Source: an uncultured Alphaproteobacteria bacterium (GTDB lineage: Bacteria > Pseudomonadota > Alphaproteobacteria > Rs-D84 > CACZYB01). From it: 64,000 nt of DNA. The position numbers and the translations under genes are program-made. Of this stretch, positions 1,439 to 41,734 are shown in pieces; within the stretch, counting starts at the first letter, position 1, and every line of letters starts with the position of its first letter. The stretch is taken from the NCBI GenBank assembly GCA_944390685.1, contig CALXQL010000006.1, forward strand, positions 24,108 through 88,107, written 5' to 3'. A model generated the notes under the pieces. It was not told where the DNA came from. It was given only the letters and a program-made list of their open reading frames with translations, and did not search any database.

Positions 1439-1478
1439 AACTATAAAATTATGTAAAACATACAATATATTCTTTCAA

Positions 1479-2330: not shown

Positions 2331-2444
2331 TTATAAATACCTAAAATATACCTAACGGTATAATAGTAATCTATTATTGTATTTTGTCAATATTTACTTG
2401 CAACTAATTACAATTTCATATATAATAGTATATATAGTTAGATT

Positions 2445-3125
2445 ATGAGGTATGCTATGCTGTTATTTTTATTAGGAGGAACTAATATTTCAAAAGAAGA
2501 AAAGAATAATTTAAATCCTCCTTTTTCTTCATTGGAATTTGATGTGGAATTTTTGAAACTTGTAAAAAAAAATAAACCAAATATTCTTTTATTACCTACT
2601 GCCAGTGAAATATTAGATAGAGAACATATTTATGAGAAGCGATTTATTAAACAATTTAAGGAATATTTAAATTGTAATGTGGATTCTTTATATTTATCCA
2701 AAATTCGTTCTACAATTAAAATTCAAAAAAAGTTAGATTGGGCAGATTGTTTTTATATATCAGGTGGGGATCCAATTCAACTATTGAATATTTGGAATGA
2801 ATCTAATTTTATAAAATTATTTAAAAAGCAAATACAAACTAAGCCAGTATATGCGGTTAGTGCTGGAGCAATGATTTTTTTTAAATATGCATTGAATGGA
2901 AATAATGAAAAAGCAACTATTAAAAAAAATGGATTAAATTTTATTTCTGGATTATGTGTTCCTCATTTTAATAGACAAGAGTTGCTTCCTTTGAAAAAAA
3001 AATTACTATCAGATAATAAATACAAAATATACGGAATAAATGATGGTGAAATTCTTTTACTAAATGAAAAAGGCTCAATATATTATAGAGATAAAGAATG
3101 GCATATTTCCTCGTTAGAAGAATAG
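2445..3125 (+). CDS. Peptidase S51 family (dipeptidase E / cyanophycinase-like)
   Basis: 226 aa. Has LLLPTAS near the N-terminus, ISGGDP (the GG(N/D) motif of S51 peptidases) and AVSAGAMIF (nucleophile-Ser region). Confidence 0.55.
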   Translation: MRYAMLLFLLGGTNISKEEKNNLNPPFSSLEFDVEFLKLVKKNKPNILLLPTASEILDREHIYEKRFIKQFKEYLNCNVDSLYLSKIRSTIKIQKKLDWADCFYISGGDPIQLLNIWNESNFIKLFKKQIQTKPVYAVSAGAMIFFKYALNGNNEKATIKKNGLNFISGLCVPHFNRQELLPLKKKLLSDNKYKIYGINDGEILLLNEKGSIYYRDKEWHISSLEE

Positions 3126-3802
3126 ATATTTCTAAAAAAGGAAACAATTTTAGACTACTAGATATACTCGTAAACCTTAACATAAGACAGGCTCTATCTT
3201 ACAGAAACGATAAAAAAATTCCATAATTGTAAGTTTGAAATTTATAGTAGCAAAATTAGAAGATATTCGAGTAATTAAGGACTTCAAACAATGGCAAGAA
3301 ACCTATAAAAAGATTGAATATTTCAAGAAAAACTATACGTAAAATCACCAGATAAATATAGCCTATCAAAATATAAAAAATAAACTCACCTAACTTTGTA
3401 ACCCTATGGGAACGAAGTGAAAAATTAATTCTTTAAGATTTTCCAATAACCACTATTATCTGGACCAACTCGTTTAATAAAGCCATTTTGTTAGTTTGTT
3501 AAGATTATACTTTATTCCATCAGGAGAAATACCTATCTTATCATATAACTATTGTCTTGTAATTTTAGGATTTTTAGTTAATAAGTCTAAAATTTTCTGG
3601 GTAGTGTTTTGCTTTTTTGGGGTAGTAGATTTTAAAAATAATTTAATCTGCATTTCTTCATTATTAAGAAGATTTTTCTTACCCAAAAGAATTAAACTTA
3701 AAATATACTAGTGTTAAAAATAAAAATTAACATAAAATATTACTTGAGTTATATCAAAATAAAAACGTATAATAAAAAATTATAACTAAAAGGGTTTATA
3801 AA

Positions 3803-5574
3803 ATGAAGTTATCAAAAATAAGAATAAAGAATTTTCGTGGTCACATTGATACAACTGTAAATATATCAAATTTAAATGTTATAATAGGACCAAATGATAT
3901 TGGAAAATCATCAATAATAGATGCTTTTGATATATATTTTAATGATTATCCAATAGATATTTCAGATGTAAACGTATTTATACCAGAAAATACGCCCAAA
4001 ATTGTTGAAATTTCTTGTTCTTTTATTGTTGATAAAAATGAGGCAGTTACACTAGACGCTAGTGAAAATACAGCAACATCTTTAGCTTCAGAATACTTAT
4101 TAAATAAAGATGGATTTCTTGAAATCTGTAAAAAATATGATTTTAGTACAAATAAAATAAAAAAAAGTATTCAGATTATAACAAAACACCCATCTAATTT
4201 TACACCTGCATTAATATTACAAAAAATAAACGATTTAAAAAAATTAGCTTCTGATAATAATATTACCCCAACTAATAATAATATAAAAAAAGACATAAGA
4301 AAAGCGATTTTTGAACAATATCCTAACTTAAATTGGGATAATGAATTTACTATTGAAGTAGAAGCAAAGGAAAACGATATTACACAAATTTTTAATAAAT
4401 TCAAAGACGATTTTCCAACATATATGGTTTTTCGTGCAGATAGAACAAATACAGATAAAGATAAAGATAAAGAAGTTAGTGAAACCACAAATGCAATTAC
4501 AAAAAGTGTTGTATCAGAACTAGAAAACGAATTTAATAATATAAAAAATAAAATAACAGATCAAATAAATACTTTAGCACAAAAAACACTCGAAAAACTA
4601 AAATTATTCGATGAAAATATATCAAATAGTTTAAAATCAAATATACAAACAAAACAACTATCCTCTTTATTTTCATTTACATTTGATTGTGATAATGGAA
4701 TTTCATTTAATAAAAGAGGAAGTGGTGTAAAAAGATTAATGTTATTAAGTTTTTTTCTTGCTGATGCAGAACAAAAAAATACAAACAAAACATTATATAC
4801 GCAATAGAAGAACCTGAAACATCACAACATCCAGATTATCAAATAATGTTAATAAATTCTTTAAAAGATTTATCAGATAAAAATAACAGACAAATAATAA
4901 TCACTACACATACTCCAGAAATAGTAAAAATTGTAAAAAAAGAAAATCTAATCTTTTTAAATAAAGATAGATCAAATATACTAAAGATACAACAAAATGA
5001 AACTTTAGAAATCAAAAAAATTGTTGATAATTTAGGAATTCTACCATATGTATCTTATAAAGAGGTAATATTTGTAGAAGGAAAAACTGATATAAGTTTT
5101 CTTAAAAATTTAAATCAATTTCAAGACTGTAAGAATATAATTGATATAACGCAATTTTCAATTATAGAATTAAATGGTTGTGCTAATGTTGATACATGGA
5201 TAAAAAATGACTATTTAGAAAATTCAAATATTAAACGTTTATATTTTCGAGATAGGAATAATAATAAAATAGAAACGGAAAATCAAAAAAACAATGTTAT
5301 AATAACAAAAAAAAGAGAAATAGAAAATTATATACCATATAATTTAATTGAAAACTACTTCAATATTGCTTTCACAAAAACAGAAAAAGAAAATTGGAAT
5401 GATATAGATGTTACTAAACATATACGAGGTAAAATAAATAACAAATACAAAAATGAAGATATAAAAAGAATATTAGAATCTCGAGATATATGGAATAATT
5501 TAAAATTACCAGATGATAGTATGAATGAAATAAAAGAATGGTTTAATAAAATAAAAAACTATTTTGATGACTAA
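3803..5574 (+). pseudogene. OLD-family ATP-dependent endonuclease (ABC-type ATPase plus C-terminal Toprim; class-1 OLD or fused PARIS AriAB-like), interrupted by a +1/-1 frameshift in an A7 tract
   Basis: N-terminus MKLSKIRIKNFRGHIDTTVNISNLNVIIGPNDIGKSSIIDAF is the OLD/AAA_15 Walker A. The ABC signature-like KRGSGVKRLMLLSFFLA lies before the break. Part 1 runs 3803..4807 in frame 2 and ends TLYTQ*. A different frame (frame 1) is open from 4765 after an in-frame TGA (4762-4764) and reads IIYAIEEPETSQHPDYQIM...QIIITTHTPE (Walker B and H-loop) up to the ATG at 4846 where the ORF track starts the second ORF. The second part also carries VIFVEGKTDISFLKNL, a Toprim motif. The reading frames swap at acaaaaaaatacaaacaaaa (4771..4790). 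Confidence 0.7.
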
Positions 5575-5798
5575 TTAATAGAATTTATAACGTATTGATT
5601 TTAAGAACTTCCTTTATAAATAAGAAAATAAAAATGAATACAGAAGAAGTAACAAATAAACTTATTAATTATATTCAACAAGCAAGAACATATCCATAAA
5701 AAAACAAATGATAAATCTATATTAGTAGCCAGATCTTTATATAGTGTAATTATTAGTCTAGCAAATAATGTTATATTTTGTATAAAAAACAACGAAAT

Positions 5799-6053
5799 TT
5801 ATTCTGCAAATGCTATAAATTGTAAATGCTTTTTATTCCAATGCCTACCAAGAATATTGCACTCTATCTGCTTCATTATTCGTTTCAGATTGTCTATTGA
5901 TGTGTATAAATTACTACTTTTTATATTCTCATGAAACTGTATTGTTAGCATATAGTTCGGCTTATATGTATCATCTATCCATTTCTTTAGCTCTTCCTTT
6001 ATTCTCATATTATTATGATATTGCTTCCATCTAGTTACCATACTTTCTATCAT
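5799..6053 (-). CDS. Short ORF (84 aa), possible N-terminal remnant of an HUH rolling-circle replication/relaxase-type protein
   Basis: MLTIQFHE resembles Rep motif I (uTuTu). About 40 aa downstream, KKHLQFIAF resembles motif II (an HuQ variant). The ORF stops before any motif III tyrosine. Weak, motif-level only. Confidence 0.3.
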   Translation of the reverse strand: MIESMVTRWKQYHNNMRIKEELKKWIDDTYKPNYMLTIQFHENIKSSNLYTSIDNLKRIMKQIECNILGRHWNKKHLQFIAFAE

Positions 6054-6421
6054 TCATATTATCATTATGCTTAATTGTGACTAGAATTATAACAAACAAA
6101 AATTTAAGGTTTTGCGTTATAAAAGTTATGACAGACTTTCTCCAAACAGAAAGATTTACAGCCTATGTATACAAAAAGTCCTATTATAATTTTCTAGAAC
6201 CGAACAATCTTCTAAAACTAATAACTATTTAACAAAGTACTAAAAAAACGGTTTTACTTAAGTTAGTAACCATATGGTAACGAACTCTATTATAAAAAAA
6301 GGCCCCCATTTAACGAGAGCCTTTTTAGTAAGTTTATCACTAAAAAATTAACAATTTAATACATTACAATGAAAATTTTCTAAATACAAAATATCCTTAC
6401 ATGTAAAAGGGCTTTTTTTAT

Positions 6422-6551
6422 AATTAATGCTTCTCACAAAAATATGAGGTCTTAGCTCTGGATCCACAACTCAGGTCCCCTGTCCCTCCCTAGAGGTAGG
6501 GGCTAGGTTGTTATACCAGTATCCAGGGCTCCCATCATAAAAGCATTAATT
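6422..6551. repeat. GC-rich palindromic structured element of about 130 bp (candidate small RNA, att-site remnant or MITE/RPE-like element)
   Basis: Perfect 11-bp inverted repeats aattaatgctt (6422..6432) and aagcattaatt (6541..6551) flank a GC-rich core (6446..6536), in sharp contrast to the AT-rich surroundings. The inner stem gctctggat (6455..6463) pairs with atccagggc (6521..6529) allowing one G-U pair. Further internal hairpins include CCCUA/UAGGG. Confidence 0.45.
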
Positions 6552-6588
6552 AAGAAAAATTTTCACTGTACAAATTAATAAGACTAAA

Positions 6589-6777
6589 ATGAAAAGTAGT
6601 TTTACAATTTTAGGTGAATATATACAATCTAAATATCCAGATAAAACACTCACAGATTATGAAACAGATGTAATGGTAAATAATATAGTTCAGTTTTTTA
6701 CCATAGGTGCAAAAATGGCTTATAACTATAAGAAAAACGGCGAAAATCTACAAAAAACTGCGTACAAATCAAAATAA
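6589..6777 (+). CDS. Short ORF (62 aa) of unknown function inside the degraded island
   Basis: ORF only. It lies immediately upstream of the recombinase fragments and may be another fragment. Confidence 0.25.
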   Translation: MKSSFTILGEYIQSKYPDKTLTDYETDVMVNNIVQFFTIGAKMAYNYKKNGENLQKTAYKSK

Positions 6778-6809
6778 TCCCTGTATAATATTAATATAAA
6801 GAATATGAA

Positions 6810-7632
6810 ATGATTAAATTTATAAAACAACAAAGAGGTAAAATACTTATTGTTGCTAATACAATTGATCGTATTCAAAGAAGATTTAAAGAATACAGTT
6901 TGTTAGATGATCTTCGTCGTGATAATAAAATTGAAATGTATTTTATAAGAGAACGTTTAACTATTAACTCTAAATCAAACGGTTATGAAATTGGTACATG
7001 GACTCAGGGTATTATGTGAGTTCAACAATATGTTATGCAATCAAGTGATAACATAAAAAGAGCAAATAACGAAAGCCGTGATAAAGGTAGATGGTTGCAT
7101 AAAGCCCTATTTGATACATTAATTATAAAGATTAATCAACTCTTGCAATGGTTAAGATAGATTCAATAAAAGGTTCTCTTTTTGCTCAAATGTTAGAGCA
7201 ATTGCTAACTATGCAAATAAAATAGGTCTTACAACTGGCTCTGGTAGAAAAATAACTAAAAAGAATGCAAATTATATGATACATAATACTTTCTATTATG
7301 GAGTAATGAGAACTATTGATGTATACAGAGCTCATACATGTGGTAATTTAATTACTAAAGAATTGTTTGATAAAATTCAAGAAGTAGCTTCAGGAAAATG
7401 CAAACCTTCATTTACAAAAAGAGCTGATACATTTATTTTTAGTGGACTATTAAGATGTGCTATATGTGGTTGTGCTATAACACCTGAAAGACATACTAAA
7501 AATAATGGAAAAACTTATACATACTTAAGATGCTTTCATTATGATCATAATTGTAAGCAACTATTATTGAATAAAAATGTCGTTTTACAACAAATAAAAG
7601 AAAAAATTTTTGATAAAAAAGAGAGATTTTAA
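6810..7632 (+). pseudogene. Serine recombinase (resolvase-type catalytic domain, recombinase domain and zinc beta-ribbon) broken into at least three frames
   Basis: 6810..7019 encodes GKILIVANTIDRIQRR (the DRLxR motif of the resolvase catalytic domain) and KIEMYFIRERLTINSKSNGYEIG. 7021..7275 in other frames gives ...GLTTGSGRKITKKNANYMIHNTFYYGVM (recombinase domain). 7276..7632 gives FSGLLRCAICGCAITPERH...YTYLRCFHYDHNC, the zinc beta-ribbon of large serine recombinases. In-frame stops lie between the pieces, and no intact N-terminal Ser nucleophile region was found. Confidence 0.65.
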
Positions 7633-7729
7633 AAATCATAAATTCGAACTCTTTGCTTGATGGAAAAAAGATAGTATTTTCAATAGCTAAGCATTTGATT
7701 TGATAATAAAAAATGATGAAAGTGTAAGA

Positions 7730-7806
7730 TGGTGGGTGATGAGAGACTCGAACTCCCGACCCTCTCGGTGTAAACGAGATGCTCTAGCCAACTGAGCTAA
7801 TCACCC
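7730..7806 (-). tRNA. tRNA-Val (anticodon TAC)
   Basis: Minus-strand sequence GGGTGATTAGCTCAGTTGGCTAGAGCATCTCGTTTACACCGAGAGGGTCGGGAGTTCGAGTCTCTCATCACCCACCA. 7-bp acceptor stem, D loop AGCTCAGTTGG, anticodon loop TTTACAC, T loop GGTTCGAGTC, CCA encoded. Confidence 0.9.
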
Positions 7807-21878: not shown

Positions 21879-23522
21879 ATGAATTTTCAAGAAACTCAAT
21901 CTTTCAATCTTCTTAAAAAACACAAAGTCTTTTTAGATGATTTTTCAATTATGGATTTATTTAATCAAAATCCAGCCAGATTTGAAGAATTTTCGACAAG
22001 TCTTGGGGATATTGTTTTTGATTATTCCAAAAATAAAATTGATAAAAAAGCTTTGGATTTTTTATTTAAAATTGCAAATAATCTTAATTTAAAAGAAAAA
22101 ATTCAAGATATGTTTAATGGTGTAAAAATAAATACTTCCGAAAATAGAGCTGTGCTACATACTTTGCTCAGAGATAATATATCAAAAAATATAATGGTTG
22201 ATGGGGTAAATGTTATTGAATATATCAAACTTAATTATCAAAAAATGATAAATTTTGCAGATGATGTTCAAAAAGGCATTTATAAGGGTATTAAAGGTGA
22301 TAGAATTTTAGATGTCGTAAATATTGGTATTGGTGGATCATATCTTGGCTCTAAAATGGTTATAGAAGCTTTAAAACCTTATAAAACTCCTCTTATCAAT
22401 TTTCATTTTATTTCAAATATTGATTCTACTGATTTAACCGAAGTATTAAAGAAAATTGAACCAGAAACTACTTTATTCATTGTTTCAAGTAAAACTTTTA
22501 CGACAGATGAAACTATGACTAATGCCTTATCCGCGAAAGAATGGCTTGTCAATAAATTAGGGGAAAAAGCTGTCAGTAAACATTTTTGTGCCGTTTCAAC
22601 AAACAAAAAGGAAATTGCTAAATTCGGTATAAATCCCGATAATGTTTTTGAATTTGGTGATTATATAGGGGGAAGGTATTCTTTGTGGTCTCCTATTGGA
22701 CTTCCTATTTGTATTGCAATTGGTAAAAATAATTTTCAAAAATTATTAGATGGGGCAAGTATTGCCGATGAACATTTTAAAAATTGTGATTTTGAACATA
22801 ATATTCCTGTATTAATGGGATTGATTTCCGTTTGGAATGTTAATTTTATGAATGTGGTTGCTGAAGCTGTATTGCCTTATGATAATTATTTGAAATTTTT
22901 ACCTATGTATCTTCAACAGCTTGTTATGGAAAGTAATGGTAAATCAGTTGATAGGCAAGGCAATTTCGTTCAATATCAAACCTCTCCTATCATATTTGGA
23001 GATGAGGGAACCAATGGTCAACATTCATTTTATCAATTATTGCATCAAGGAACTGAAAATATTTCTTGTGATTTCATTTTACCTATATTTTCTCATAATG
23101 AAGTTGGTGAACATCAACTTAAATTACTTGCCAATGGAATTGCCCAAAGTGAAGCATTGATGAAAGGAAAGTCCAAAGAAGAAGCTTTCGATGAAATGGT
23201 AAGTCAAGGTATCTCACAAGATAATATTTCAAAGTTATTACCTTATAAAGAATTTAAAGGTGATAGACCTTCAAATACTTTCTTAATAAAACAAATTACT
23301 CCTGAAACATTAGGTATGTTGGTTGCATTTTATGAACATAAAACTTTTGTAGAAGGTGTGTTATGGGATATCAATTCTTTTGATCAATTTGGAGTTGAAC
23401 TTGGAAAACAACTTGCAAAAAATATTGTAAAGGATTTGAAAAGTGATGAAGGCATTAGTAAACATGATTCTTCTACAACTGGTATCATTACTATGGTAAA
23501 AGCTTTAAGAAATAATAAATAA
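21879..23522 (+). CDS. pgi: Glucose-6-phosphate isomerase
   Basis: 547 aa with IGIGGSYLG, FIVSSKTFTT and GQHSFYQLLHQG. Confidence 0.9.
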   Translation: MNFQETQSFNLLKKHKVFLDDFSIMDLFNQNPARFEEFSTSLGDIVFDYSKNKIDKKALDFLFKIANNLNLKEKIQDMFNGVKINTSENRAVLHTLLRDNISKNIMVDGVNVIEYIKLNYQKMINFADDVQKGIYKGIKGDRILDVVNIGIGGSYLGSKMVIEALKPYKTPLINFHFISNIDSTDLTEVLKKIEPETTLFIVSSKTFTTDETMTNALSAKEWLVNKLGEKAVSKHFCAVSTNKKEIAKFGINPDNVFEFGDYIGGRYSLWSPIGLPICIAIGKNNFQKLLDGASIADEHFKNCDFEHNIPVLMGLISVWNVNFMNVVAEAVLPYDNYLKFLPMYLQQLVMESNGKSVDRQGNFVQYQTSPIIFGDEGTNGQHSFYQLLHQGTENISCDFILPIFSHNEVGEHQLKLLANGIAQSEALMKGKSKEEAFDEMVSQGISQDNISKLLPYKEFKGDRPSNTFLIKQITPETLGMLVAFYEHKTFVEGVLWDINSFDQFGVELGKQLAKNIVKDLKSDEGISKHDSSTTGIITMVKALRNNK

Positions 23523-23546
23523 ACTCCCAATTGGGAGTTTTTTTAT
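23520..23546. terminator. Bidirectional rho-independent terminator between convergent pgi and alr
   Basis: Perfect 18-bp palindrome aactcccaattgggagtt (23522..23539), flanked by A-run and T-run. Confidence 0.65.
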
Positions 23547-24736
23547 ATCAAATATTTTGATTGAAAGACTTTAAATTCATCAACATCTAAATCAATTGCA
23601 TTCATATTATTCCTTGTCAAATCACATATAAGTTCGCATGGAATAAACCCATTTGATGAACGAAAATCCATAATATTGGCATTTTTACCCACAACTTCAA
23701 CAAAATAACGATATTGCAGATAATCATCTGGGATATGTGTTATATCAATTATTGTATTATTCATTGAAATAATGCCAATAACTGGACATTTATATTTGCC
23801 TAAACACATATAAGATTTTGTAAATCCAGCACCAGAATGTAATTTTGCCCTTATCCTATCAAAAAATTTATTGGTTTTAGAAAGAGAACGAGAATAACCA
23901 TCCTTATATCCTATATTGATTACAGCAACTTTCATATTATGAAGGGCCCTATATCCACCAAAATATCCAATGGTTTCACCCATTTTCACTTTTCTTATTT
24001 GTAAAATCTTTGCATATACAGAATAAACACTTTCCATTGATTTTTTCATACCATATAGTCCATATCCCATACGGATTATATCAAAATGATATTCAGATGG
24101 AAGATTAAATGCTCCACCTGTTGCAGAAAGACTTACCTTTGCCTTTGGCAACAATTTCAAGTATGATTTTAAAATTTCCAATTGCTTTTTATTATTTTTA
24201 TCATTTTTATTATATGAACTATGAAGATGACTTATATATAAAACAATTTCCAAATTTGATGTGTATTCATTCCATTTATCGGATAATTCCTTTACATCAT
24301 TTTTACTTAATCCAGTTCTATTCATACCTGTATCAAAATGTATTGCAAATTTTGCCTTACAATTTTGTTTCTTTGCAGTTTGATTATAATATTTTATTTG
24401 ATTAAGACTTATACAAATAGGTATCAATTTATTGTTTATAAATGTTTCCGCTTGATTATTTTGAACCCCAGAAAAGGTATAAATATTTACTTCATCCCTT
24501 ATTATTTTACGGGTTTTTAGCGCCTCTAATATATCTTGGCAAAAATATTCGGTGATACCATTTTCCTTTAAGATAGGTAATACCTTTTTTAATCCTATAC
24601 CATAGGCATCCGCTTTTACAACTACACCCAATTTATCCCCAAATTCTTCCTTTGCCTTTTTCACATTTTTATCAAAGGCAATGTTATCAAATACCCTTAT
24701 TAAATCATAATTATCAAAAGTATCATTTTTTTCCAT
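23543..24736 (-). CDS. alr: Alanine racemase
   Basis: 397 aa. VVKADAYGIG is the PLP-Lys motif. A C-terminal beta domain follows. Confidence 0.8.
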   Translation of the reverse strand: MEKNDTFDNYDLIRVFDNIAFDKNVKKAKEEFGDKLGVVVKADAYGIGLKKVLPILKENGITEYFCQDILEALKTRKIIRDEVNIYTFSGVQNNQAETFINNKLIPICISLNQIKYYNQTAKKQNCKAKFAIHFDTGMNRTGLSKNDVKELSDKWNEYTSNLEIVLYISHLHSSYNKNDKNNKKQLEILKSYLKLLPKAKVSLSATGGAFNLPSEYHFDIIRMGYGLYGMKKSMESVYSVYAKILQIRKVKMGETIGYFGGYRALHNMKVAVINIGYKDGYSRSLSKTNKFFDRIRAKLHSGAGFTKSYMCLGKYKCPVIGIISMNNTIIDITHIPDDYLQYRYFVEVVGKNANIMDFRSSNGFIPCELICDLTRNNMNAIDLDVDEFKVFQSKYLI

Positions 24737-24853
24737 TTTTTACCTCTTTTATTTTATTTAATATTATCCTTTTTTATTAAATATACAAGTCAAAACTTTT
24801 TATTGATATATATTAGTTTTTCTTATACAATAATCTAGTTATAATAAAAGGAT

Positions 24854-27793
24854 TTGAATATGAAACTATCTAATATATTAAGTAATATTGAATACTCTTC
24901 TATAAATTTTAATGATATTGATATAAAAGGTGTAGAAAATAACTCATCTAAAATTAAAGACGGGTATATTTTTCTTGCCATTAAAGGAAATAATTTTAAT
25001 GGTGTAGATTTCATCCAAAATGCAATAGATAATGGTGCTGTTGCTATAATCGTTGAAAAATCAAATTCTTTAAATACTGATTTATATCCAAATACTACAA
25101 TCATTTTTGTTGATAATATAAGGATTGTGGAATTCAAACTTGCAAGTATCTTTTACCCAAATAATATAAAATCTATTGTTGCAGTAACGGGAACCAATGG
25201 TAAAAGTTCGGTCGTAAATTTCGTAAGACAAATGTGGACTTTCCTTAATATAAAATCAGCTTCAATTGGAACTTTGGGTGTGCAAACGGAAAATAATGTA
25301 GGGGGAAAATCTTTAACCACACCAGATGCAATTGAACTTCATAAGCATTTACAAAAACTTGATAATGATGGTATTACAAATGTTGCATTAGAAACTTCTT
25401 CTCATGGCATATCTCAACATAGAGTAGATGGAATTAAAATAACAGCTGCTGCATTCACCAATATTTCAAATGACCATCTTGATTATCATAAAACCATTGA
25501 TGAATATTTTAATGCTAAATTAAGATTATTTTCTCAATTGCTTGATAAAGATGGTGTTGCAGTTATCAATATTGATGATGGATATGGGCTTAAAGTAGTT
25601 GATGTATGTAAAAATAGAGGTATTAAAGTCATAGCCTATGGTAAAAATGATAATGCTGATATAAAATTTATTGATTATAAGATAGAAGATGATTTCCAAA
25701 AGGTGAAAATTTCAGTATTTGGTGAAGAATTTAATCTCACTCTTAATCTTATTACCGAATTCCAAGTATACAATCTGCTTTGTGCTTTGGGCTTATTTAT
25801 GGCATCTGTTGATGATTGGAAAAAAATTCTTCCTTTTTTAAGTTCCATTAAAAATGAAAAAGGTAGAATTGAATATGTTGCTACTACACCAAATGGGGCA
25901 AAAATTTATGTGGATTTTGGCCATAATGGTGATGGACTTAAAAAAGTATTAACTCAATTCAGACCTTATGTAAAACAAAATCTTATTTGTATTGCTGGAT
26001 GTAGTGGCAATAGACCTGAAATTCGCAGAATTGAAATGGGACAAGTTTTAAATCAATATGCAGATAAAGTCGTCATAGTTGATGATAATCCTAGAAATGA
26101 AGATCCAAAAGTCATTAGGGATACTTTATTCAAATATTGCCCAAAAGCTATGGTCATACCTGATAGGTATAAGGCTATTGAAGAAGTAATTGATACTTCA
26201 AGAGTTTGGGATAGCATTATAATTTGTGGAACTTTATTTGAAAAAGATAAGGAATTCATTAGGGAAAAATTAAAACCTCAAATGCGAAAACTTGATGAAT
26301 TATTACATGATGCAAATATCAATATTACAAATGTTCCAAGTATTCCTATATATAATGTATCTTCTGATTCCAATAATATAATTGATGGTAGTATTTTTGT
26401 TGGAATTAAAGGATTTAATCTTGATGGGGCTAATTTCTCATTTGATGCAATAAATAAAGGGGCAAAAGTTATTGTAGTTGCAAAAAACTATAATTTTGAT
26501 GATAAAACTCTTAATTTAATTGATGAAAAAAATGTAATTGTTATAAAAGTGGATAATACAAGAAAAGCTTTTGATGATTTGATGTTTGCCTTTTATAATA
26601 AAACTCAACCTGATACAATTGTCGCTGTAACAGGAAGTAGTGGTAAGTCTTCTGTTGTTGATTTTTGTCGTCAAATTTGGGGCTTGATGAAGCTTCCTGC
26701 AATAAGTTCTGGAACCATTGGAATTATTGCTGAAAATGTTTATTCAAAAAAAGAAATCATTAAATACAATGATGCTGATTATACCACACCTGGAAATGGT
26801 GAAGCATATAAAATGTTTAAATATTTTAAAGAAAAAGGTGTAAATTATGCTGCAATTGAACTTTCATCTCATGGTCTTGATCAACTTCGCATGAATAATC
26901 TTAAAATATCTTCCGCCGGATTTACAAATCTTGGCACTGATCATATGGATTTTTATGGCGGTGCAGAAAAGTATTTGGAATCTAAATCTAAATTATTTAA
27001 GGAAAATTTGGATATAAATGGAACTGCTGTTTTAAATGCTGATATTGATGAATATTCATATTTAAAAAATATTTGTGATGAAAGAGGGGTTAAATCCATA
27101 TCTTATGGTAAAAATGGTAAAGAACTAAAAATCATCTCGCAAGAAGTTTCTTTAAGCGGTCAAAAAGTGGAAATTGAACTTTTCGGTAAAAGGTATAAGT
27201 ATGATTTAAAAATTTTAGGTTCTTTCCAACTTTATAATCTTCTTTGTGCCATTGGTTTGGTCGCATCTTCCACAAATAATTGGCAAAATGTATTACCTAT
27301 GCTTGATAATGTAAGAAATGCTATGGGTAGATTGGAATATATGGGCAAAACAAAAAAAGGTGCCTTCATTTATATTGATTTTGCTTATAAAGGTGATGCT
27401 TTATTCAATACATTAAAAACTCTTCGTTCCATGAGTGATAAAAAAATTATATGTGTATTTTCTACTTGTGGTGATGTATATGAAACTCGTAGAAGACAAG
27501 AATTAGGACAAGCAGCTCAAGAACTTTCCGATATTGCTATATTAACTGATGATAGCCCTAGAAATGAAGATCCTCAAAAAATAAGAAATGAAGTATTGGC
27601 TTATTGTCCAAAAGCAATTGAAATAAAAACTGGTAGAAAAGATGCTATTCGTAAAGCTTTTGAATTAGCAGGTTGTGATGATATCATTTTGATTGCTGGA
27701 AAAGGTCATGAAGATTATATCACTATTAAAGATAAAAACATACCTTATACAGATCAAAATTCTGTTATAGAATTATTAAAAGAAGAGATTTAA
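24854..27793 (+). CDS. murE: Tandem fusion of two complete MurE-type UDP-MurNAc-tripeptide ligase modules (979 aa)
   Basis: Module 1 (about aa 1-475) has VTGTNGKSS, TTPDA, ETSSHGISQHR, FTNISNDHLDYH, DFGHNGD and DDNPRNED. Module 2 (about aa 478-979) has VTGSSGKSS, TTPGN, ELSSHGLDQLR, FTNLGTDHMDFY, DFAYKGD, DDSPRNED and AGKGHEDY. Both N-termini align (MKLSNIL... and MRKLDELL...). The MurF-specific features (NxNNxIG, DDSYNAN) are absent from both. Confidence 0.8.
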   Translation: MNMKLSNILSNIEYSSINFNDIDIKGVENNSSKIKDGYIFLAIKGNNFNGVDFIQNAIDNGAVAIIVEKSNSLNTDLYPNTTIIFVDNIRIVEFKLASIFYPNNIKSIVAVTGTNGKSSVVNFVRQMWTFLNIKSASIGTLGVQTENNVGGKSLTTPDAIELHKHLQKLDNDGITNVALETSSHGISQHRVDGIKITAAAFTNISNDHLDYHKTIDEYFNAKLRLFSQLLDKDGVAVINIDDGYGLKVVDVCKNRGIKVIAYGKNDNADIKFIDYKIEDDFQKVKISVFGEEFNLTLNLITEFQVYNLLCALGLFMASVDDWKKILPFLSSIKNEKGRIEYVATTPNGAKIYVDFGHNGDGLKKVLTQFRPYVKQNLICIAGCSGNRPEIRRIEMGQVLNQYADKVVIVDDNPRNEDPKVIRDTLFKYCPKAMVIPDRYKAIEEVIDTSRVWDSIIICGTLFEKDKEFIREKLKPQMRKLDELLHDANINITNVPSIPIYNVSSDSNNIIDGSIFVGIKGFNLDGANFSFDAINKGAKVIVVAKNYNFDDKTLNLIDEKNVIVIKVDNTRKAFDDLMFAFYNKTQPDTIVAVTGSSGKSSVVDFCRQIWGLMKLPAISSGTIGIIAENVYSKKEIIKYNDADYTTPGNGEAYKMFKYFKEKGVNYAAIELSSHGLDQLRMNNLKISSAGFTNLGTDHMDFYGGAEKYLESKSKLFKENLDINGTAVLNADIDEYSYLKNICDERGVKSISYGKNGKELKIISQEVSLSGQKVEIELFGKRYKYDLKILGSFQLYNLLCAIGLVASSTNNWQNVLPMLDNVRNAMGRLEYMGKTKKGAFIYIDFAYKGDALFNTLKTLRSMSDKKIICVFSTCGDVYETRRRQELGQAAQELSDIAILTDDSPRNEDPQKIRNEVLAYCPKAIEIKTGRKDAIRKAFELAGCDDIILIAGKGHEDYITIKDKNIPYTDQNSVIELLKEEI

Positions 27794-29084: not shown

Positions 29085-30554
29085 TTATTTTATATCCAAT
29101 AAGTTTAATAAATTTGAAATTGGAACCAATAACATTTGTGGACGATAAGATATTTCATAATTCACTTCATATAAATTACGTCTTAATATTTCAAGATTAA
29201 ACCATTGTTTATCCAATTTTTGACATTTTAAAAATGTATTTTTTAATTCCATTATTATAGGATTTAACATCTTATAGCCCCATATAATTTTATCCTTATC
29301 AATTTCTCCATTTGTCAGTCTTGCAAATTTATTTATAACTGAGGCCTTTAAATATCCATCAATTGATCTATACATACTTGCAATATCATACATGTTTGGA
29401 TTCTTTGCCTTTCTTTTTATAAATGGGAGATTGGGTTCTCCTGAAAAATCAATGAATTTTATTTCATCATTATTGGTTAGGATTGCTTGACCAAGATGAA
29501 AATCACCATGGACCCGCATCAATGTCCCTTTGTTTTTGCGTCTTTCTATCTTTATGAAGTTTGAGGATATAAACTTATTTATATAATCATCCCAATTATT
29601 TAATAACTCCTTTGTTTTATCCTTTATGAATAAGGGAAGACTATCTATATTTTTTTTTATTGCAAGTTTTGTTTCTTGTAATCTTATTGTTAAATTATCC
29701 CTATATTCTTTTATATATTTTGATGTGATTGGTTCGGGAATTAAATCTTTATCATCGGTAAAAGAAGATAGCGACTTTAATAAAATTGATGTTTTCTTAC
29801 CTAAATCCTTTATGATTTTTTTTAGTGGTTTATAATCTTTATATTCTATTTTCTCATTGTTTAATTTATAATTAGAAGTTAATAAATCTCTTAATTTATT
29901 TGTAAAAATTTCCCATAAATCACCTTTATTGGATAAAAATTCTTGAACTATACCTACAAATGCAGTTTCACCATTTGATGATAGTAAAAATAAATGTCCA
30001 TAGGTTTTAGCCACAACCGGGCAATTAACTTTCATCAAATTATAGTTCATTTCCACTTCTGGATTTGTGAGAGTGGAAAATTCTATTATTCTTTGCTGTT
30101 TAAAAGCTATATCATTATTTCCTATTGATAATGTGGTATTGCTTTGTTCTGCACCAAGGGGGCGAGATGAATCATTTATATGATTTGTTATAAAATTAAA
30201 ATTATCCCATGATTGGTATATCAATTTATAATCTTTTGATATAGTAAAGGAATTTGATAATGATATTGTTTCCATCAATGATGACCAATATTTATTATTT
30301 TTCAAAGCATCATAGACCTTCATCCCCTTATAACTTAATGGAAGTTCATCTTTTAATGTTCCCTTAATTAAAGGCATTATAAAATATTTATCATCTTTTC
30401 CTTTTATCTCAGCTTTTGCCAAAATAAAATATATTTTTTTATCGTTAAAGGGTGCCATTTCCAAAGTGATATTTTTAACTTTATTAGATTTTATATCATC
30501 TTTAAAATTACACCATCTTTGGTTATAAATATATTCCAATAATTTCTTATTCAT
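29085..30554 (-). CDS. Maltokinase (Mak/Pep2)-like protein-kinase-fold phosphotransferase
   Basis: VHGDFHLGQAIL...IKFIDFSGEP...DIASMYRSIDGY matches the maltokinase HGDLHLGQ and DFEGEP signature and its APH-like fold. Adjacent to malQ. Confidence 0.55.
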   Translation of the reverse strand: MNKKLLEYIYNQRWCNFKDDIKSNKVKNITLEMAPFNDKKIYFILAKAEIKGKDDKYFIMPLIKGTLKDELPLSYKGMKVYDALKNNKYWSSLMETISLSNSFTISKDYKLIYQSWDNFNFITNHINDSSRPLGAEQSNTTLSIGNNDIAFKQQRIIEFSTLTNPEVEMNYNLMKVNCPVVAKTYGHLFLLSSNGETAFVGIVQEFLSNKGDLWEIFTNKLRDLLTSNYKLNNEKIEYKDYKPLKKIIKDLGKKTSILLKSLSSFTDDKDLIPEPITSKYIKEYRDNLTIRLQETKLAIKKNIDSLPLFIKDKTKELLNNWDDYINKFISSNFIKIERRKNKGTLMRVHGDFHLGQAILTNNDEIKFIDFSGEPNLPFIKRKAKNPNMYDIASMYRSIDGYLKASVINKFARLTNGEIDKDKIIWGYKMLNPIIMELKNTFLKCQKLDKQWFNLEILRRNLYEVNYEISYRPQMLLVPISNLLNLLDIK

Positions 30555-30637
30555 TTTAAATTTTTCTTTAATACTTTTTCTTATTATTGTATAATAATAC
30601 CATATTTTATGATTTATGTAAAATTAAAAGAGGGGTT

Positions 30638-32773
30638 ATGAATAATATCATAAAATTATGTGAAATACTGGGGCTTTCTTCTTCATTCATTGATAAAATG
30701 GGGGATCTACATAATACCTCTTTTAATGTTAGAAAAAAATTCTTACAATCAATTGGTATAAATGATTTTTCCAGTAAAAATATTAACTCTTTAATACATA
30801 AGTTGGAACATCAAATATTTGTTAATAAATGTAAAAATGTAGTATCTTTTTTTAAAAGCGATATAAAGGAATTTGATATTTATATACCTTTTGATTATAT
30901 GGAAAATACTCTTAATTATACTTGTTTTAAAGATGGATTAAAGTTATTTTCACATAAAATTTTTATAAAAAAAGATATGCAAACTGAATATATTATCGTT
31001 GATAATATTAAAATCGCTCATATAAAAATTATTTTAAAAATGCCAAAGGAGTTTGGTTATTATGATTTATCTTTTTCAATTAAAGATTTAGTGTTTTCAT
31101 CGTTTATTATTTATTCTCCCGATACAGCATATCTTCCCGATTGTATAGAAAAAAAGAAGGAAAAACTCCTTGGAATTGCAATACAACTTTATGCTATATC
31201 TTCATCAAATAATATGGGCGTAGGGGATTTTTCCGATCTTAAAAATATTATGAAATTGGCAAGCGAAAATAATATTGATTTTGTAGGGATAAATCCCTTG
31301 GGAGTTATGTATTATCAAAGTAAAGATGATGTTTCTCCTTATAGAGTGTTTAGTCGTGAATTTATCAATTATCTTTATATTGATTTAAAAAAAGTTTATG
31401 AATTCAAATTTATAAATATCCCTATTAGTATTCAAAAAAAAATAAATACTTTGAAAATTTGTGATAAGGTTGATTATTTCAATATATTAACTATTAAATT
31501 ATCATTACTTTTCAAAATGTATAATGTCTTTATTAAAAATAAAAATTCAAATAGATTTATTAAATTTCAAAACTTTAAAAAGGATAAAGGTGAAAATCTT
31601 TATAATCTTTGTTTATTTGAAACTTTGATTGAAAAAAATAATCCCGATTGGCAAAAATGGCAAAAGGATTTTAAAAACCTAAAATCAAAAAAAATACTTA
31701 ATTTTGCAAATGAAAATAAAAAACGTATTGATTTTTATGCCTATTGTCATTGGATTGCTGAAACTCAACTTAAAAATGTTTATGATTTTGCAAAAAAATT
31801 AAATATGAAAGTAGGCCTTTATCTTGATATGCCAGTAGGGGCTGCATCAAATGGGGTAGAAGTATGGCAAAATCAAGAATTATTTGCTAAAAATATGGAT
31901 ATTGGGACTCCTCCTGATACTATAAGACCAAAAGGGCAAACTTGGGGATTGGTACCTATGATTCCATATAAACTCATTGAAAATAAGTATAAGTTTATTA
32001 TCAATCTTTTTAGAAAAAATATGCTTTATGCCGGTGCTATTAGAATAGATCATGCCTTAGGTTTAATGCGATTATTTTGGGTAAATGATGATAATAAAGG
32101 TGCCTATGTTTATTATGATTTCAAAACTATGATTGCAATTTTATCAATAGAATCTCATCTTAATAAATGTTTAATCATTGGTGAAGATTTAGGTAATGTC
32201 CCAGATGGTTTTAGAGAAATATTAGCTAGTCATCATATTCTTTCCAATAAAATATTATTTAGGCAAAAAGATCATGATGGGGAATTTTTATCTACTAAAA
32301 AATATCCTTATCTTTCTTTATCCCAAGTGAGTACTCATGATCAAGCTACATCTTGTGGATTTTGGGTGGGAGAAGATATTCATACAAACTTTAAATGTAA
32401 ATTATTTCCTAAAATCTCTCAATATAACGATAATTTAAAGTTAAGGCAAAATGAAAGAATTGCTTTTTATAAAGCTCTTAATAAATCAAATTGTTTTTAT
32501 AATAATAAACAACATATAATGAAATTTATTGATGGAGCAGTTCCTCCTTATAATATTGAATATTCCTTTAATATGTATGGGGCAAAAACCAATAGTGCAT
32601 TATTTATTATTAGAATTGAAGATATGGTAAGACAAATAGCCATGGAAAATGTGCCGGGAACAATTTATCAATATCCAAATTGGAAAATAAAACTTCCACG
32701 GGATATTAAACTCATTTTAAAGAAAAACTCCCATTTCATTCGTAAAATATTATATTATAGAAATATGAAATAA
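30638..32773 (+). CDS. malQ: 4-alpha-glucanotransferase (amylomaltase)
   Basis: GH77 motifs GIAIQLYAISS, RIDHALGLMRLFWV and GEDLGNVPDGF. Start moved to the Met at 30638, which has an aagagggg RBS. Confidence 0.8.
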   Translation: MNNIIKLCEILGLSSSFIDKMGDLHNTSFNVRKKFLQSIGINDFSSKNINSLIHKLEHQIFVNKCKNVVSFFKSDIKEFDIYIPFDYMENTLNYTCFKDGLKLFSHKIFIKKDMQTEYIIVDNIKIAHIKIILKMPKEFGYYDLSFSIKDLVFSSFIIYSPDTAYLPDCIEKKKEKLLGIAIQLYAISSSNNMGVGDFSDLKNIMKLASENNIDFVGINPLGVMYYQSKDDVSPYRVFSREFINYLYIDLKKVYEFKFINIPISIQKKINTLKICDKVDYFNILTIKLSLLFKMYNVFIKNKNSNRFIKFQNFKKDKGENLYNLCLFETLIEKNNPDWQKWQKDFKNLKSKKILNFANENKKRIDFYAYCHWIAETQLKNVYDFAKKLNMKVGLYLDMPVGAASNGVEVWQNQELFAKNMDIGTPPDTIRPKGQTWGLVPMIPYKLIENKYKFIINLFRKNMLYAGAIRIDHALGLMRLFWVNDDNKGAYVYYDFKTMIAILSIESHLNKCLIIGEDLGNVPDGFREILASHHILSNKILFRQKDHDGEFLSTKKYPYLSLSQVSTHDQATSCGFWVGEDIHTNFKCKLFPKISQYNDNLKLRQNERIAFYKALNKSNCFYNNKQHIMKFIDGAVPPYNIEYSFNMYGAKTNSALFIIRIEDMVRQIAMENVPGTIYQYPNWKIKLPRDIKLILKKNSHFIRKILYYRNMK

Positions 32774-38225: not shown

Positions 38226-38831
38226 ATGGCTTTGTTTAAAAAAAATAAAAAAATTTCTGTTAGTGTTTTTTGTGGATCCAGAAATGGAAAAAGTAAGGAA
38301 TATTTAAATCTTGCAAAACATACTGGTGAACTTCTTGCTAAAAATAATATGCGTTTGGTTTATGGTGCAGGTGGTAAAGGTTTAATGGGGGCCGTTGCAA
38401 ATGGAGTGATTGAAAATAATGGTGAAATTTATGGTGTGACAACAGAAGTTATTGCCGCATTTGAACAGCCAATTGCCGGAACAAAAACAAAAATCGTTAA
38501 AACTTTACAAGATAGAAAGGAACTTTTTATTAAAAATTCTAATGCCTTTATAATACTTCCTGGTGGATTTGGAACTTTTGATGAATTGTTTGATTTATTA
38601 GTAGGAAAAGAAATTTATGATAAACATAAAGAAGTAGTGCCAGGTAGCCGTCTTTCGGAAACAAGACCTATCATACTCATAAATAAAAATAAATTTTTTA
38701 CTCCTTTTGTTAATCTTGTTGATTCAATAATTAAAGAAGGTTTTATGCATCAACAAAATAAAAAAATGTATAAATTAGTTGATACACCTGAAGAGGCTAT
38801 CAAAATTATTAAAAATTATATGAAAAAATAA
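38226..38831 (+). CDS. LOG-family cytokinin riboside 5'-monophosphate phosphoribohydrolase-like protein
   Basis: VYGAGGKGLMGAV and LPGGFGTFDELFD match the PGGxGTxxE LOG motif. Confidence 0.8.
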   Translation: MALFKKNKKISVSVFCGSRNGKSKEYLNLAKHTGELLAKNNMRLVYGAGGKGLMGAVANGVIENNGEIYGVTTEVIAAFEQPIAGTKTKIVKTLQDRKELFIKNSNAFIILPGGFGTFDELFDLLVGKEIYDKHKEVVPGSRLSETRPIILINKNKFFTPFVNLVDSIIKEGFMHQQNKKMYKLVDTPEEAIKIIKNYMKK

Positions 38832-40855: not shown

Positions 40856-40948
40856 AAAAAATTTATGGGGAAAGTCATATTGTCCGATTACCTTCACTTT
40901 CCCCTCCCTATTTTACATTATGTGAACGAACAAAGAAAGGAGAAAAAT

Positions 40949-41734
40949 ATGAAATTAAATAAAAAACTGCTCATGCTTGGGTTGGGGATTACAGCCTCAA
41001 CGGGAGCATTAGCACAAACATTTTATCAATGTTTGCCGTGTACTGCTGGAACTTATTCCAGTAGTGGTAAGTGTATTAATTGTCCGGCTGGAAAATATCA
41101 AAATTTAACAGGGCAATTAAGTTGTAAGGCATGTCCGGCGGGAAGTTATTGTCCGGCGGGAAGTGTTGAACCGAAACCTTGTTTACCAGGACAATATCAA
41201 GATGCAACAGGGCAAGGAAGTTGTAAATCATGTCCGGCTGGACAAGTATCAAATAGTGGAGCAACATTTTGTAGGACATTTGGAAGTGGTGGAACATTGA
41301 TAGGAGTAAGTGGAGGAAGAGGAACATTGGCACCAGGAGCATATAGAGTTGAACTTTCTGGTGGTAAAGGTGGAAAAGGACAAGATAATTGGTGTTATGC
41401 AACAAATTGTAATGGTTGTTATGGTGGAAATGGTTATACAAATTCAAAAGTATTTGTAGTTACAAAAGATACAAATTATACATATTCTATTGGAAGTATT
41501 GGAGCAAATGGAAGTGGGGGACCTAGTAGTTGTAATAATAGAACACAAACACCAGGTAAACAAGGCGGAACAACCACATTTACACTTAGTGGAGTATTTA
41601 GTATATCCGCCCAAGGAGGACCTGGTGGACCAGGAGGTAGAACAGTTAATTTAGGTTGTGGTGGTGGATGTTCAAATGCTGTAGGTGGTAATGGTAGTAA
41701 TGGCAATGGTTGGCTTAAAATTTATAAAATGTAG
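40949..41734 (+). CDS. Secreted protein with eukaryote-like Cys-rich repeats (GCC2/GCC3- or TNFR/furin-like CxxCPAGxY) and a C-terminal glycine-rich domain
   Basis: Signal peptide MKLNKKLLMLGLGITASTGALAQ. Repeats CLPCTAGTYSSSGKCINCPAGKYQ, CKACPAGSYCPAGS and CKSCPAGQVS. Then GAYRVELSGGKGGKG...GGNGYTN...GGPGGPGG, which resembles the Gly-rich domain family. Start moved to the Met at 40949. Confidence 0.6.
   Translation: MKLNKKLLMLGLGITASTGALAQTFYQCLPCTAGTYSSSGKCINCPAGKYQNLTGQLSCKACPAGSYCPAGSVEPKPCLPGQYQDATGQGSCKSCPAGQVSNSGATFCRTFGSGGTLIGVSGGRGTLAPGAYRVELSGGKGGKGQDNWCYATNCNGCYGGNGYTNSKVFVVTKDTNYTYSIGSIGANGSGGPSSCNNRTQTPGKQGGTTTFTLSGVFSISAQGGPGGPGGRTVNLGCGGGCSNAVGGNGSNGNGWLKIYKM

Follow-up and report, generated by a model that had tools for sequence, protein, structure and literature searches.

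MurE is the ligase that sets the residue at position 3 of the stem peptide, a residue that governs the cross-linking of peptidoglycan. In the Escherichia coli enzyme (PDB 1E8C; profile TIGR01085), whose numbering is used here for all pocket residues (e.g., E. coli R389), the D-centre of diaminopimelate is bound by G464, E468, D413, and N414 and its L-centre by R389, while R416 binds both of the substrate's carboxylates (PMC9434261). A different solution is found in Thermotoga maritima, where MurE inserts both D-Lys and L-Lys, the D-Lys comes from a lysine racemase, and L-Ala-D-Glu-D-Lys stems occur in the wall. In the PDB alignment this enzyme has no equivalent of R389 (the sequence there is GGNSD), and its variant of the DNPR motif is DDPR. 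Mur ligases also occur as chimeras: in that of Bordetella pertussis (PDB 8F5D; profile NF008896), two three-domain ligases of about 950–980 residues in all follow each other head-to-tail, with MurE in first position and MurF in second, and the nearest alphaproteobacterial relatives of the locus described below share this layout. Who would look for a MurE fused to another MurE? The original prediction, made from the DNA letters, knew of no canonical fusion of this kind, which holds for the published survey of Mur chimeras but not for the databases, where a family of at least 37 sequences and one further protein, P0139, are to be found.

P0139 is a metagenomic protein of 979 aa that also carries tandem MurE modules in one ORF, one of them with a DNPR motif and the other with DNAE. 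It arose separately, its two halves being mutual closest relatives (100% bootstrap). Its modules are otherwise canonical, it has no adjacent racemase, and its gene lies in the cluster ftsI-murEE-murF-mraY-murD-ftsW-murG, directly upstream of a normal murF.

The fusion studied here is encoded in a 64,000-nucleotide stretch of DNA (the window) from an uncultured Alphaproteobacteria bacterium. The murE-murE′ gene occupies positions 24860..27793 of the forward strand, as do all features of the protein given below, and it encodes 977 aa plus a stop codon; a database protein of 977 aa (P0001) is 100% identical. It sits outside any dcw cluster. An ORF of 979 aa had been claimed, and the frame is indeed uninterrupted from a TTG at 24854 to 27793. 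However, database orthologues and gene callers begin at the ATG at 24860 (MKLSNIL...), which makes 24860–27793 the better coordinate and 977 aa the better length, and use of the TTG at 24854 as an alternative start is unlikely.

The protein contains each of the Pfam domains Mur_ligase, Mur_ligase_M, and Mur_ligase_C twice. Module 1 (24860..26269; aa 1–470) is a full MurE in which the canonical diaminopimelate ligands are all present, and module 2 (26291..27790; aa 478–977) is a complete MurE-type ligase whose amino-acid pocket is remodelled. Between them, a short linker, LKPQMRK (26270..26290), joins the last helix of module 1 to the first of module 2. The modules align from end to end with 38% identity (E = 4e-105). 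The AlphaFold model of the fusion (pLDDT 89.6, pTM 0.79) shows two complete MurE folds with good confidence across the linker and junction, the sole low-confidence stretch being a loop of module 2 (26732..26782). Its best full-length structural match is the B. pertussis chimera 8F5D, although the global superposition is poor (TM 0.41–0.50, rmsd 16.7 Å). The fusion differs from that chimera in that its second module is a MurE by descent, its gene lies away from any dcw cluster, and the C-terminal hairpin is missing from module 1.

That both halves are of the MurE type, as first proposed, is clear from the profiles. Against TIGR01085 (murE; cut-off 257.3) they score 381 and 349 bits, respectively, whereas TIGR01143 (murF; cut-off 288.6) gives only 106.5 and 106.3 bits; the tree agrees that neither half is a MurF, and a module 2 that is MurF by profile is ruled out. 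The bifunctional MurE/MurF profile NF008896 yields 723.8 bits, below its cut-off of 1023, and both stretches of the protein match the MurE half of that profile. In a neighbor-joining (NJ) tree, the distance from the modules to MurF is about twice that to other MurE. Module 1 and module 2 each form a clade in this tree (100% bootstrap); these clades are sisters (95%) and branch internally along broadly parallel lines, a topology that points to a single duplication predating the diversification of the clade. When more outgroups are added in a second tree, support for the sister relationship goes down to 19%, because P0262, a standalone protein on a long branch, falls into the group; modules 1 and 2 together with P0262 have 62% support. 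Horizontal acquisition of module 2 was considered as well and rejected: among 1.84 billion representative proteins, none other than its own orthologues clearly surpasses module 1 in similarity to module 2, the best outside match reaching 43% identity against 38% for module 1.

Could the architecture nevertheless be an artefact, either a collapsed or mis-joined repeat or the read-through of two adjacent genes? Nothing speaks in favor of this except the oddness of the architecture itself, and we consider it extremely improbable. The modules share only 38% of their residues, and a long DNA repeat is absent from the ORF; the longest diverged repeats measure 52–79 nt, occupy homologous sites in both modules, and are 71–75% identical, so the duplication is neither recent nor made by assembly. 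The original prediction had also argued against a recent duplication, and its view is borne out by the low identity, the missing long repeat, and the sister clades of the tree. Moreover, independent contigs from ENA, JGI, NCBI, and Logan encode this two-module protein, a finding that together with the low identity and the missing repeat rules out both mis-assembly and recent duplication. The at least 37 sequences of this architecture come from independent assemblies and from genomes of 28–58% GC. The in-frame junction and the conserved short linker recur in no fewer than 23 full-length orthologues, which stem from independent assemblies and different assemblers, and the structural model is confident over the junction. 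Fusion orthologues range down to 52% identity. Across 23 of them, again from genomes of 28–58% GC, 168 positions of module 1 and 171 of module 2 are at least 95% conserved: the two modules are equally constrained. The fusion is thus real and ancient: murE was duplicated in tandem, the copies were joined in frame, and the product is fixed in one uncultured clade of Alphaproteobacteria.

The motifs quoted in the original prediction are all present where it had located them. The P-loop reads TGTNGKS in module 1 (25187..25207; invariant in 23/23 orthologues) and TGSSGKS in module 2 (26630..26650). Both modules have the whole catalytic set, invariant in 18–23 orthologues: the P-loop Lys, the Mg-binding Glu, the DH motif, the Lys known to be carbamylated in MurD/E/F, the GR.E motif, and the Asp of DYAH. 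The MurE-specific SSHG..Q.R is kept too, as SSHGISQHR and SSHGLDQLR, respectively; we take it to be the acceptor motif, with its arginine presumably serving in that role. With these residues in place, modules 1 and 2 are both predicted to be working ATP-dependent Mur ligases.

Fold and catalytic residues are thus shared with E. coli MurE, and the departures from it, besides the fused duplicate, lie elsewhere. Module 1 has 6/6 of the diaminopimelate ligands (R389, D413, N414, R416, G464, and E468), as a meso-DAP-specific MurE does. Its GCSGNR motif (25997..26014) retains the Arg equivalent to R389, the ligand of the L-centre carboxylate, and its diaminopimelate motif DNPR is intact (DDNPR, 26081..26095). 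However, CGTLFE (26225..26242) replaces AGKGHE, with K465, G466, and H467 lost but G464 and E468 kept, and just after it the 12-residue C-terminal hairpin of MurE is deleted. Module 2 does not have the full meso-DAP set. There, STCGDVYE (27461..27484) replaces GCGGDRD, with a two-residue insertion and, in 23/23 orthologues, the loss of R389, an arginine invariant in all 14 canonical MurE compared, and DDSPR (27548..27562) changes N414 to Ser in 23/23 orthologues; D413, R416, G464, and E468 are kept. In addition, FAYKGD (27380..27397) replaces YAHTPD, turning H359 into Tyr (23/23 orthologues), and a module 2-specific loop, ENVYSKKEIIKYNDADY (26732..26782), which is eight residues longer than in MurE and has a conserved ENVYS, directly precedes the TTP substrate motif. 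AGKGHEDY (27695..27718), on the other hand, is canonical, and the C-terminal hairpin is retained after it. Altogether, 20 positions are fixed yet different between the modules, and half of these (10/20) lie in three substrate loops of domain 3 (positions 359, 360, 363, 382, 384, 386, 389, 414, 463, and 465). The idea of a complementary motif decay therefore needs amending: each module does lack a different part of the amino-acid-binding apparatus, but since the differences are fixed across 23 orthologues, this is a conserved remodelling and not an ongoing decay.

The fusion gene has a divergent, conserved partner. On the reverse strand (23543..24736) lies the gene of a PLP racemase of the alanine-racemase family whose pocket is remodelled; it is adjacent and divergent in 11/11 clade loci, while the remaining neighbors vary. 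The two genes are separated by 123 bp (24737..24859), in which TTGATA-17-TACAAT (24803–24831) looks like a promoter, although promoter and terminator matches are no commoner here than by chance. The racemase scores 176.1 bits against TIGR00492 (alanine racemase), barely over the cut-off of 168, and its nearest solved relative is the Bartonella alanine racemase. Residues K39, Y43, R136, H166, R219, Y265, and M312 are conserved, of which K39, R136, H166, R219, and Y265 are catalytic. The canonical Y354-E motif is gone, most members have Asn in place of D313, and about 19 residues are inserted; going by the Geobacillus Alr literature, we take Y354-E and D313 to be substrate-gate residues of Alr. 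These altered traits occur only in racemases encoded on the same contigs as the fusion, whereas ordinary alphaproteobacterial Alr keep YE and SMD. Still, the racemase may simply be the Alr of the cell, and its pairing with the fusion may reflect a general co-regulation of genes for cell-wall precursors.

What would two such modules do? We tentatively favor a division of labor in which module 1 would be the housekeeping mDAP ligase and module 2 a neofunctionalised position-3 ligase. With its altered pocket, module 2 would most likely attach a different residue to the same presumed UDP-MurNAc-dipeptide acceptor, and the cell would then produce two kinds of nucleotide tripeptide, with the ratio of the enzymes fixed at 1:1. 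A non-standard second wall residue is probable because the pocket of module 2 is rebuilt and an unusual racemase is always adjacent. As for the nature of that residue, it is read from the ligands kept and lost: module 2 keeps the residues that bind the amine and carboxylate of the D-centre, it has lost the one for the L-centre carboxylate, and a racemase with an altered pocket is always paired with the fusion, from which we infer a D-configured substrate, probably a diamino acid joined via its side-chain amine. The best candidate may be N-epsilon-linked D-lysine (or D-ornithine), supplied by the racemase, as in T. maritima. Use of D-Lys is established for T. maritima and proposed for the fusion; in the former, one single-module enzyme performs both additions, whereas in the latter two specialised modules and an Alr-derived racemase would share the task.

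Some of the substitutions are to be read with care. N414S alone need not alter specificity, because P0190, a standalone and otherwise canonical MurE, also carries DSPR. Nor is it certain that module 1 is the “normal” module, since it lacks K465/G466/H467 and the hairpin, and since the N407A variant of Staphylococcus aureus MurE, in which an Asn-Lys-Glu network is broken, is inactive. Finally, the Tyr of module 2 at the position of H359, as in MurF, and its extra loop would also suit a longer acceptor.

Module 2 could then be an analogue of MurF, extending the tripeptide from module 1 with D-Ala-D-Ala in a lineage that has lost the canonical murF. Fusions usually unite consecutive steps, and the next-best database matches are MurE-MurF chimeras from related Alphaproteobacteria that equal the fusion in length and order. 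The Tyr in place of H359 is the MurF consensus at that position, the extra loop adjoins the acceptor-binding TTP motif, and the loss of R389 fits a substrate whose first carbon bears no carboxylate. A pairing with an alanine-racemase-family enzyme also recalls the bifunctional MurF/alanine racemase family NF008897, and the presence of PBP2/RodA suggests that a supply of pentapeptide, and hence MurF activity, is presumably needed. Searches for murF, murC, and murD found none in the 64-kb window and none up to 10 kb from the fusion gene in 11 clade loci, and no murF was seen in the gene contexts of the relatives P0137 and P0262; among the matches listed, clade contigs hold no additional MurE-like protein. 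Yet the absence of murF nearby says little, because the mur genes of the group are scattered, the single murE of P0137 likewise lying outside a dcw cluster. Displacement of an essential and near-universal enzyme is moreover unlikely a priori, and P0139, which became a MurE-MurE fusion independently, has a murF beside it. Module 2 scores 349 bits as a MurE against 106 as a MurF and branches deep within MurE. Its SSHG..Q.R, a motif of the central domain, is invariant, and this domain makes most of the contacts with the UDP-MurNAc-peptide, while the retained D413 and E468 bind a D-centre amine that D-Ala-D-Ala lacks. Because this motif and the D-centre amine and carboxylate ligands are kept, module 2 suits a substrate resembling diaminopimelate or D-lysine better than D-Ala-D-Ala, and a role as MurF analogue appears improbable.

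Alternatively, the chemistry may not have changed at all: both modules would add meso-diaminopimelate, or one of them would be a catalytically weak, structural, or regulatory partner, the fusion serving dosage, stability, or scaffolding. The catalytic core is present in both modules, as are R416, D413, G464, and E468; DSPR is found in the otherwise canonical P0190; and Mur chimeras are thought to help complex assembly. Plant MurE-like proteins even retain DNPR though they are no longer ligases. We nonetheless find an unchanged chemistry rather unlikely, though less so than a replacement of MurF. Intact redundant copies rarely persist over genomes of such different composition and down to such low identity, and conserved positions are as numerous in module 2 as in module 1. 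What sets module 2 apart is fixed and clustered in the amino-acid-binding loops, the loss of an otherwise invariant Arg among them, and the partner racemase is altered in step. A second position-3 ligase is the reading that we continue to prefer.

The E-E′ fusion is a new type of chimera relative to the published survey of Mur fusions, and a natural experiment in how few substitutions re-target a Mur ligase. The residue at position 3 feeds host innate-immune signaling through NOD1/NOD2. Insect receptors sense DAP-type walls. If module 2 has replaced MurF, a whole alphaproteobacterial clade would have undergone the non-orthologous displacement of an essential and near-universal step in making peptidoglycan; MurF could then no longer be assumed to be indispensable, which would matter for antibiotics directed against it. 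If the preferred reading is true, a fused pair of MurE modules with differing pockets and a co-evolving racemase would provide uncultured Alphaproteobacteria with a compact genetic route to a mixed or modified cell wall.

The forward strand carries a single open reading frame at 24854-27793 of the window. An identical database protein (P0001) and all of its orthologues start with MKLS..., that is, at the ATG at 24860, and the gene is therefore best stated as 24860-27793 (977 aa). As the original prediction held, it joins two MurE-type modules (aa 1-470 and 478-977). The halves align over their whole length (38% identity, E = 4e-105), the three Pfam Mur-ligase domains each occur twice, and the NCBIfam murE model TIGR01085 gives 381 bits for the first half and 349 bits for the second, both above its cut-off of 257. 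The murF model TIGR01143 reaches just 106 bits per half, below its cut-off of 289, and matches to the NCBIfam bifunctional MurE/MurF model are limited to its MurE half. All of the motifs first quoted for the two halves were found where they had been placed.

The duplication had been considered old rather than recent, and this is borne out by the divergence of the halves, by the lack of any long DNA repeat (only 52-79 nt repeats of 71-75% identity, at homologous module positions) and by orthologues in independent assemblies. Among 5.8 billion proteins, 28 clusters were recovered (52-100% identity, complete members of 953-984 residues), all with a module 1 orthologue as N-terminal half and a module 2 orthologue as C-terminal half, and an additional metagenome scan gave eight further loci. 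These orthologues come from ENA, JGI, NCBI and Logan assemblies, carry the NCBI labels “Rickettsiales bacterium,” “Alphaproteobacteria bacterium” or “bacterium,” and lie on contigs of 28% to 58% G+C. Given such short, diverged repeats and such varied sources, an artefact behind the duplicated architecture was dismissed as having a negligible probability. Next in rank, at roughly 30% identity, come ordinary alphaproteobacterial MurE-MurF chimeras; their C-terminal half shares only some 25% identity with either module.

In a neighbour-joining tree rooted on MurF halves, modules 1 and 2 are each monophyletic (100% bootstrap for both), form sister groups (95%) nested within MurE, and have roughly parallel internal branching orders. 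Adding outgroups brings in the long-branch standalone MurE P0262, which groups with both modules without resolving the order among the three (62% for the three-way group). Among 1.84 billion representative proteins, and setting aside the orthologues of module 2 themselves, the top match to this module is the standalone MurE P0137 at 43% identity; module 1 stands at 38%, so nothing among the outside proteins is clearly closer to module 2. We conclude that murE was duplicated in tandem and fused once, in the ancestor of the clade, the uncultured Alphaproteobacteria having this protein.

Over 23 orthologues (E. coli MurE numbering), both modules keep the P-loop Lys, the Mg-binding Glu, the DH motif, the Lys carbamylated in MurD/E/F, GR.E, the Asp of DYAH and the MurE-specific SSHG..Q.R motif. 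Constraint is equal, with 168 positions at least 95% conserved in module 1 and 171 in module 2. Twenty positions are fixed in each module yet differ between them, and half of these (359, 360, 363, 382, 384, 386, 389, 414, 463 and 465) fall in three substrate loops of the C-terminal domain. In diaminopimelate, the D-centre is bound by G464, E468, D413 and N414, R389 is the L-centre ligand, and R416 contacts both carboxylates (PMC9434261). Module 1 retains all six ligands; its AGKGHE has become CGT(M/L)(Y/F)E, and it has lost the C-terminal hairpin of 12 residues. Module 2 retains AGKGHEDY, the hairpin, D413, R416, G464 and E468. In 23/23 orthologues, however, its GCGGDRD is replaced by STCGD-x-YE, and hence R389 is lost, N414 has become Ser (DDSPR), H359 is Tyr, and a loop immediately ahead of the TTP motif, with a conserved ENVYS, is eight residues longer than in MurE. 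The counterparts of N414, K465 and E468 in S. aureus MurE (Asn, Lys and Glu) belong to a single hydrogen-bond network, and changing the Asn to Ala abolishes activity; in the fusion, this network is broken in both modules, through a different residue in each. The “complementary decay” originally noted is real but not ongoing, as the differences are fixed and conserved across the 23 orthologues. An AlphaFold model of the fusion is confident (pLDDT 89.6, pTM 0.79), with a well-ordered short linker and a module 2 loop (aa 627-641) as its sole poorly defined part; single MurE structures fit one module with target-normalised TM-scores of 0.79-0.85.

No other Mur ligase was found in the 64-kb window, nor within 10 kb of the fusion gene in 11 clade loci, and the gene is outside dcw clusters at every locus inspected. 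Its sole constant neighbour, adjacent in 11/11 loci, is a divergently transcribed alanine-racemase-family gene (23543-24736, reverse strand, in the window), while outer neighbours vary (PGI in the window; lpxK, SufE and others elsewhere). On TIGR00492 this racemase reaches 176 bits (cut-off 168); its closest solved relative is the Bartonella alanine racemase, and it retains K39, Y43, R136, H166, R219, Y265 and M312. Compared with ordinary Alr, clade racemases lack the canonical Y354-E motif, mostly have Asn for D313 and are lengthened by an insert of some 19 residues. Their contigs correspond in length, one for one, to those bearing the fusion gene; the next matches, ordinary alphaproteobacterial Alr, have YE and SMD intact and no insert. 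Clade organisms are diderms that encode LpxK, KdtA, MlaA, AsmA and TolB, and on one clade contig MreC, PBP2, RodA, an M23 peptidase and a glucosaminidase are encoded near the fusion gene, implying that these organisms make peptidoglycan.

What, then, would the second module do? Fixed differences clustered in amino-acid-binding loops, under equal constraint, argue for two active ligases that would differ in incoming substrate. Redundant copies, or a non-catalytic partner module, seem unlikely: DSPR does occur in a standalone MurE that is canonical in other respects (P0190), but the conservation pattern of the modules speaks otherwise. Module 1, with its six diaminopimelate ligands, is likely the housekeeping enzyme. 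In module 2, SSHG..Q.R lies in the central domain, which makes most contacts to UDP-MurNAc-peptide; its Arg presumably binds the D-Glu carboxylate. The ligands of the distal D-centre amine and carboxylate are retained and that of the proximal carboxylate is missing, a pocket whose exact match would be a D-diamino acid joined through its side-chain amine. N-epsilon-linked D-lysine would have as many bonds between nucleophilic nitrogen and D-centre as meso-diaminopimelate, only the L-centre carboxylate being absent. T. maritima MurE, also without an R389 equivalent, adds both D-Lys and L-Lys, the former supplied by a Lys racemase, and L-Ala-D-Glu-D-Lys stems are present in the wall: a precedent for module 2 and its neighbouring racemase, whose co-evolution would fit the D-diamino-acid picture. 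We tentatively favour module 2 as a second position-3 ligase of new specificity, at somewhat under an even chance; D-Lys or D-Orn as its substrate is a rather doubtful detail.

Takeover of the MurF role by module 2 would suit its position in the protein, the E-F chimeras of relatives, the association with a gene of the Alr family and the Tyr in place of H359, but it is improbable given how the profiles score module 2, where the tree places it, its retention of D413 and E468, and the precedent of P0139. This metagenomic protein (979 aa) is an unrelated second MurE-MurE fusion, its own halves being mutually closest (100% bootstrap), with DNPR in the first module and DNAE in the second. Its locus (L059, 2369-6663) is a classic ftsI-murEE-murF-mraY-murD-ftsW-murG cluster in which a normal murF directly follows the fusion. 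It suggests that fused dual-specificity position-3 ligases evolved independently in another lineage. P0137, the single MurE of a relative whose locus (L062, gene at 9587-11065) shares plsY-dprA synteny with the window, is also outside dcw clusters and has EEH where the catalytic DH motif is expected and TGTDGKT as P-loop.

Elsewhere in the window, a glucose-6-phosphate isomerase gene (21879-23522) and a maltokinase-like gene (of the C-terminal type seen fused to TreS) back to back with a long MalQ/GH77 4-alpha-glucanotransferase gene (29085-32773) form an alpha-glucan metabolism set; the alphaproteobacterial genome is small and AT-rich and has the NCBI label “Rickettsiales.” The DNA of a near-identical strain (scaffold_41, locus L005) aligns with the window at 99.5% identity between 22768 and 7730, and tRNA-Val (7730-7806) marks the exact point of divergence. 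On the far side of this tRNA, the other strain carries recA, lexA and two HTH genes, and the window has very AT-rich DNA (GC 0.23-0.24, 2 to 6 kb) with TauD-like, S51 peptidase and OLD-like ORFs; positions 1-7806 may represent a tRNA-associated island that varies between strains, or may have been rearranged. Adjacent ORFs at 3803-4807 (AAA_15 positions 1-323) and 4846-5574 (the last 27 AAA_15 positions and an OLD-like TOPRIM domain) jointly resemble one split OLD-family ATPase/nuclease, and may be a disrupted defence gene within this stretch. A 289-aa ORF (40865-41734), with cysteine-rich Ephrin_rec_like/NCD3G-type repeats typical of eukaryotes, lies within the most GC-rich patch of the window (0.35 versus about 0.28). 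Next to tRNA-Cys, 38226-38831 encodes a protein of the LOG family (“possible lysine decarboxylase”/SLOG); members of this family are usually classed as cytokinin-type nucleotide phosphoribohydrolases.

A published survey of Mur chimeras, which excluded unnamed organisms, lists E-F, G-C, C-B, C-Ddl, D-FtsW and MraY-MurG fusions and no E-E. The initial impression that no MurE-MurE fusion was known agrees with that survey but not with the databases, which hold the clade orthologues and the independent P0139. The clade fusion bears only a generic MurE name there, and no description of it was found. The MurE-MurE' fusion is real, ancient and conserved; its second pocket is remodelled, it has a racemase as dedicated partner, and it is an addition to the known Mur-ligase chimeras.
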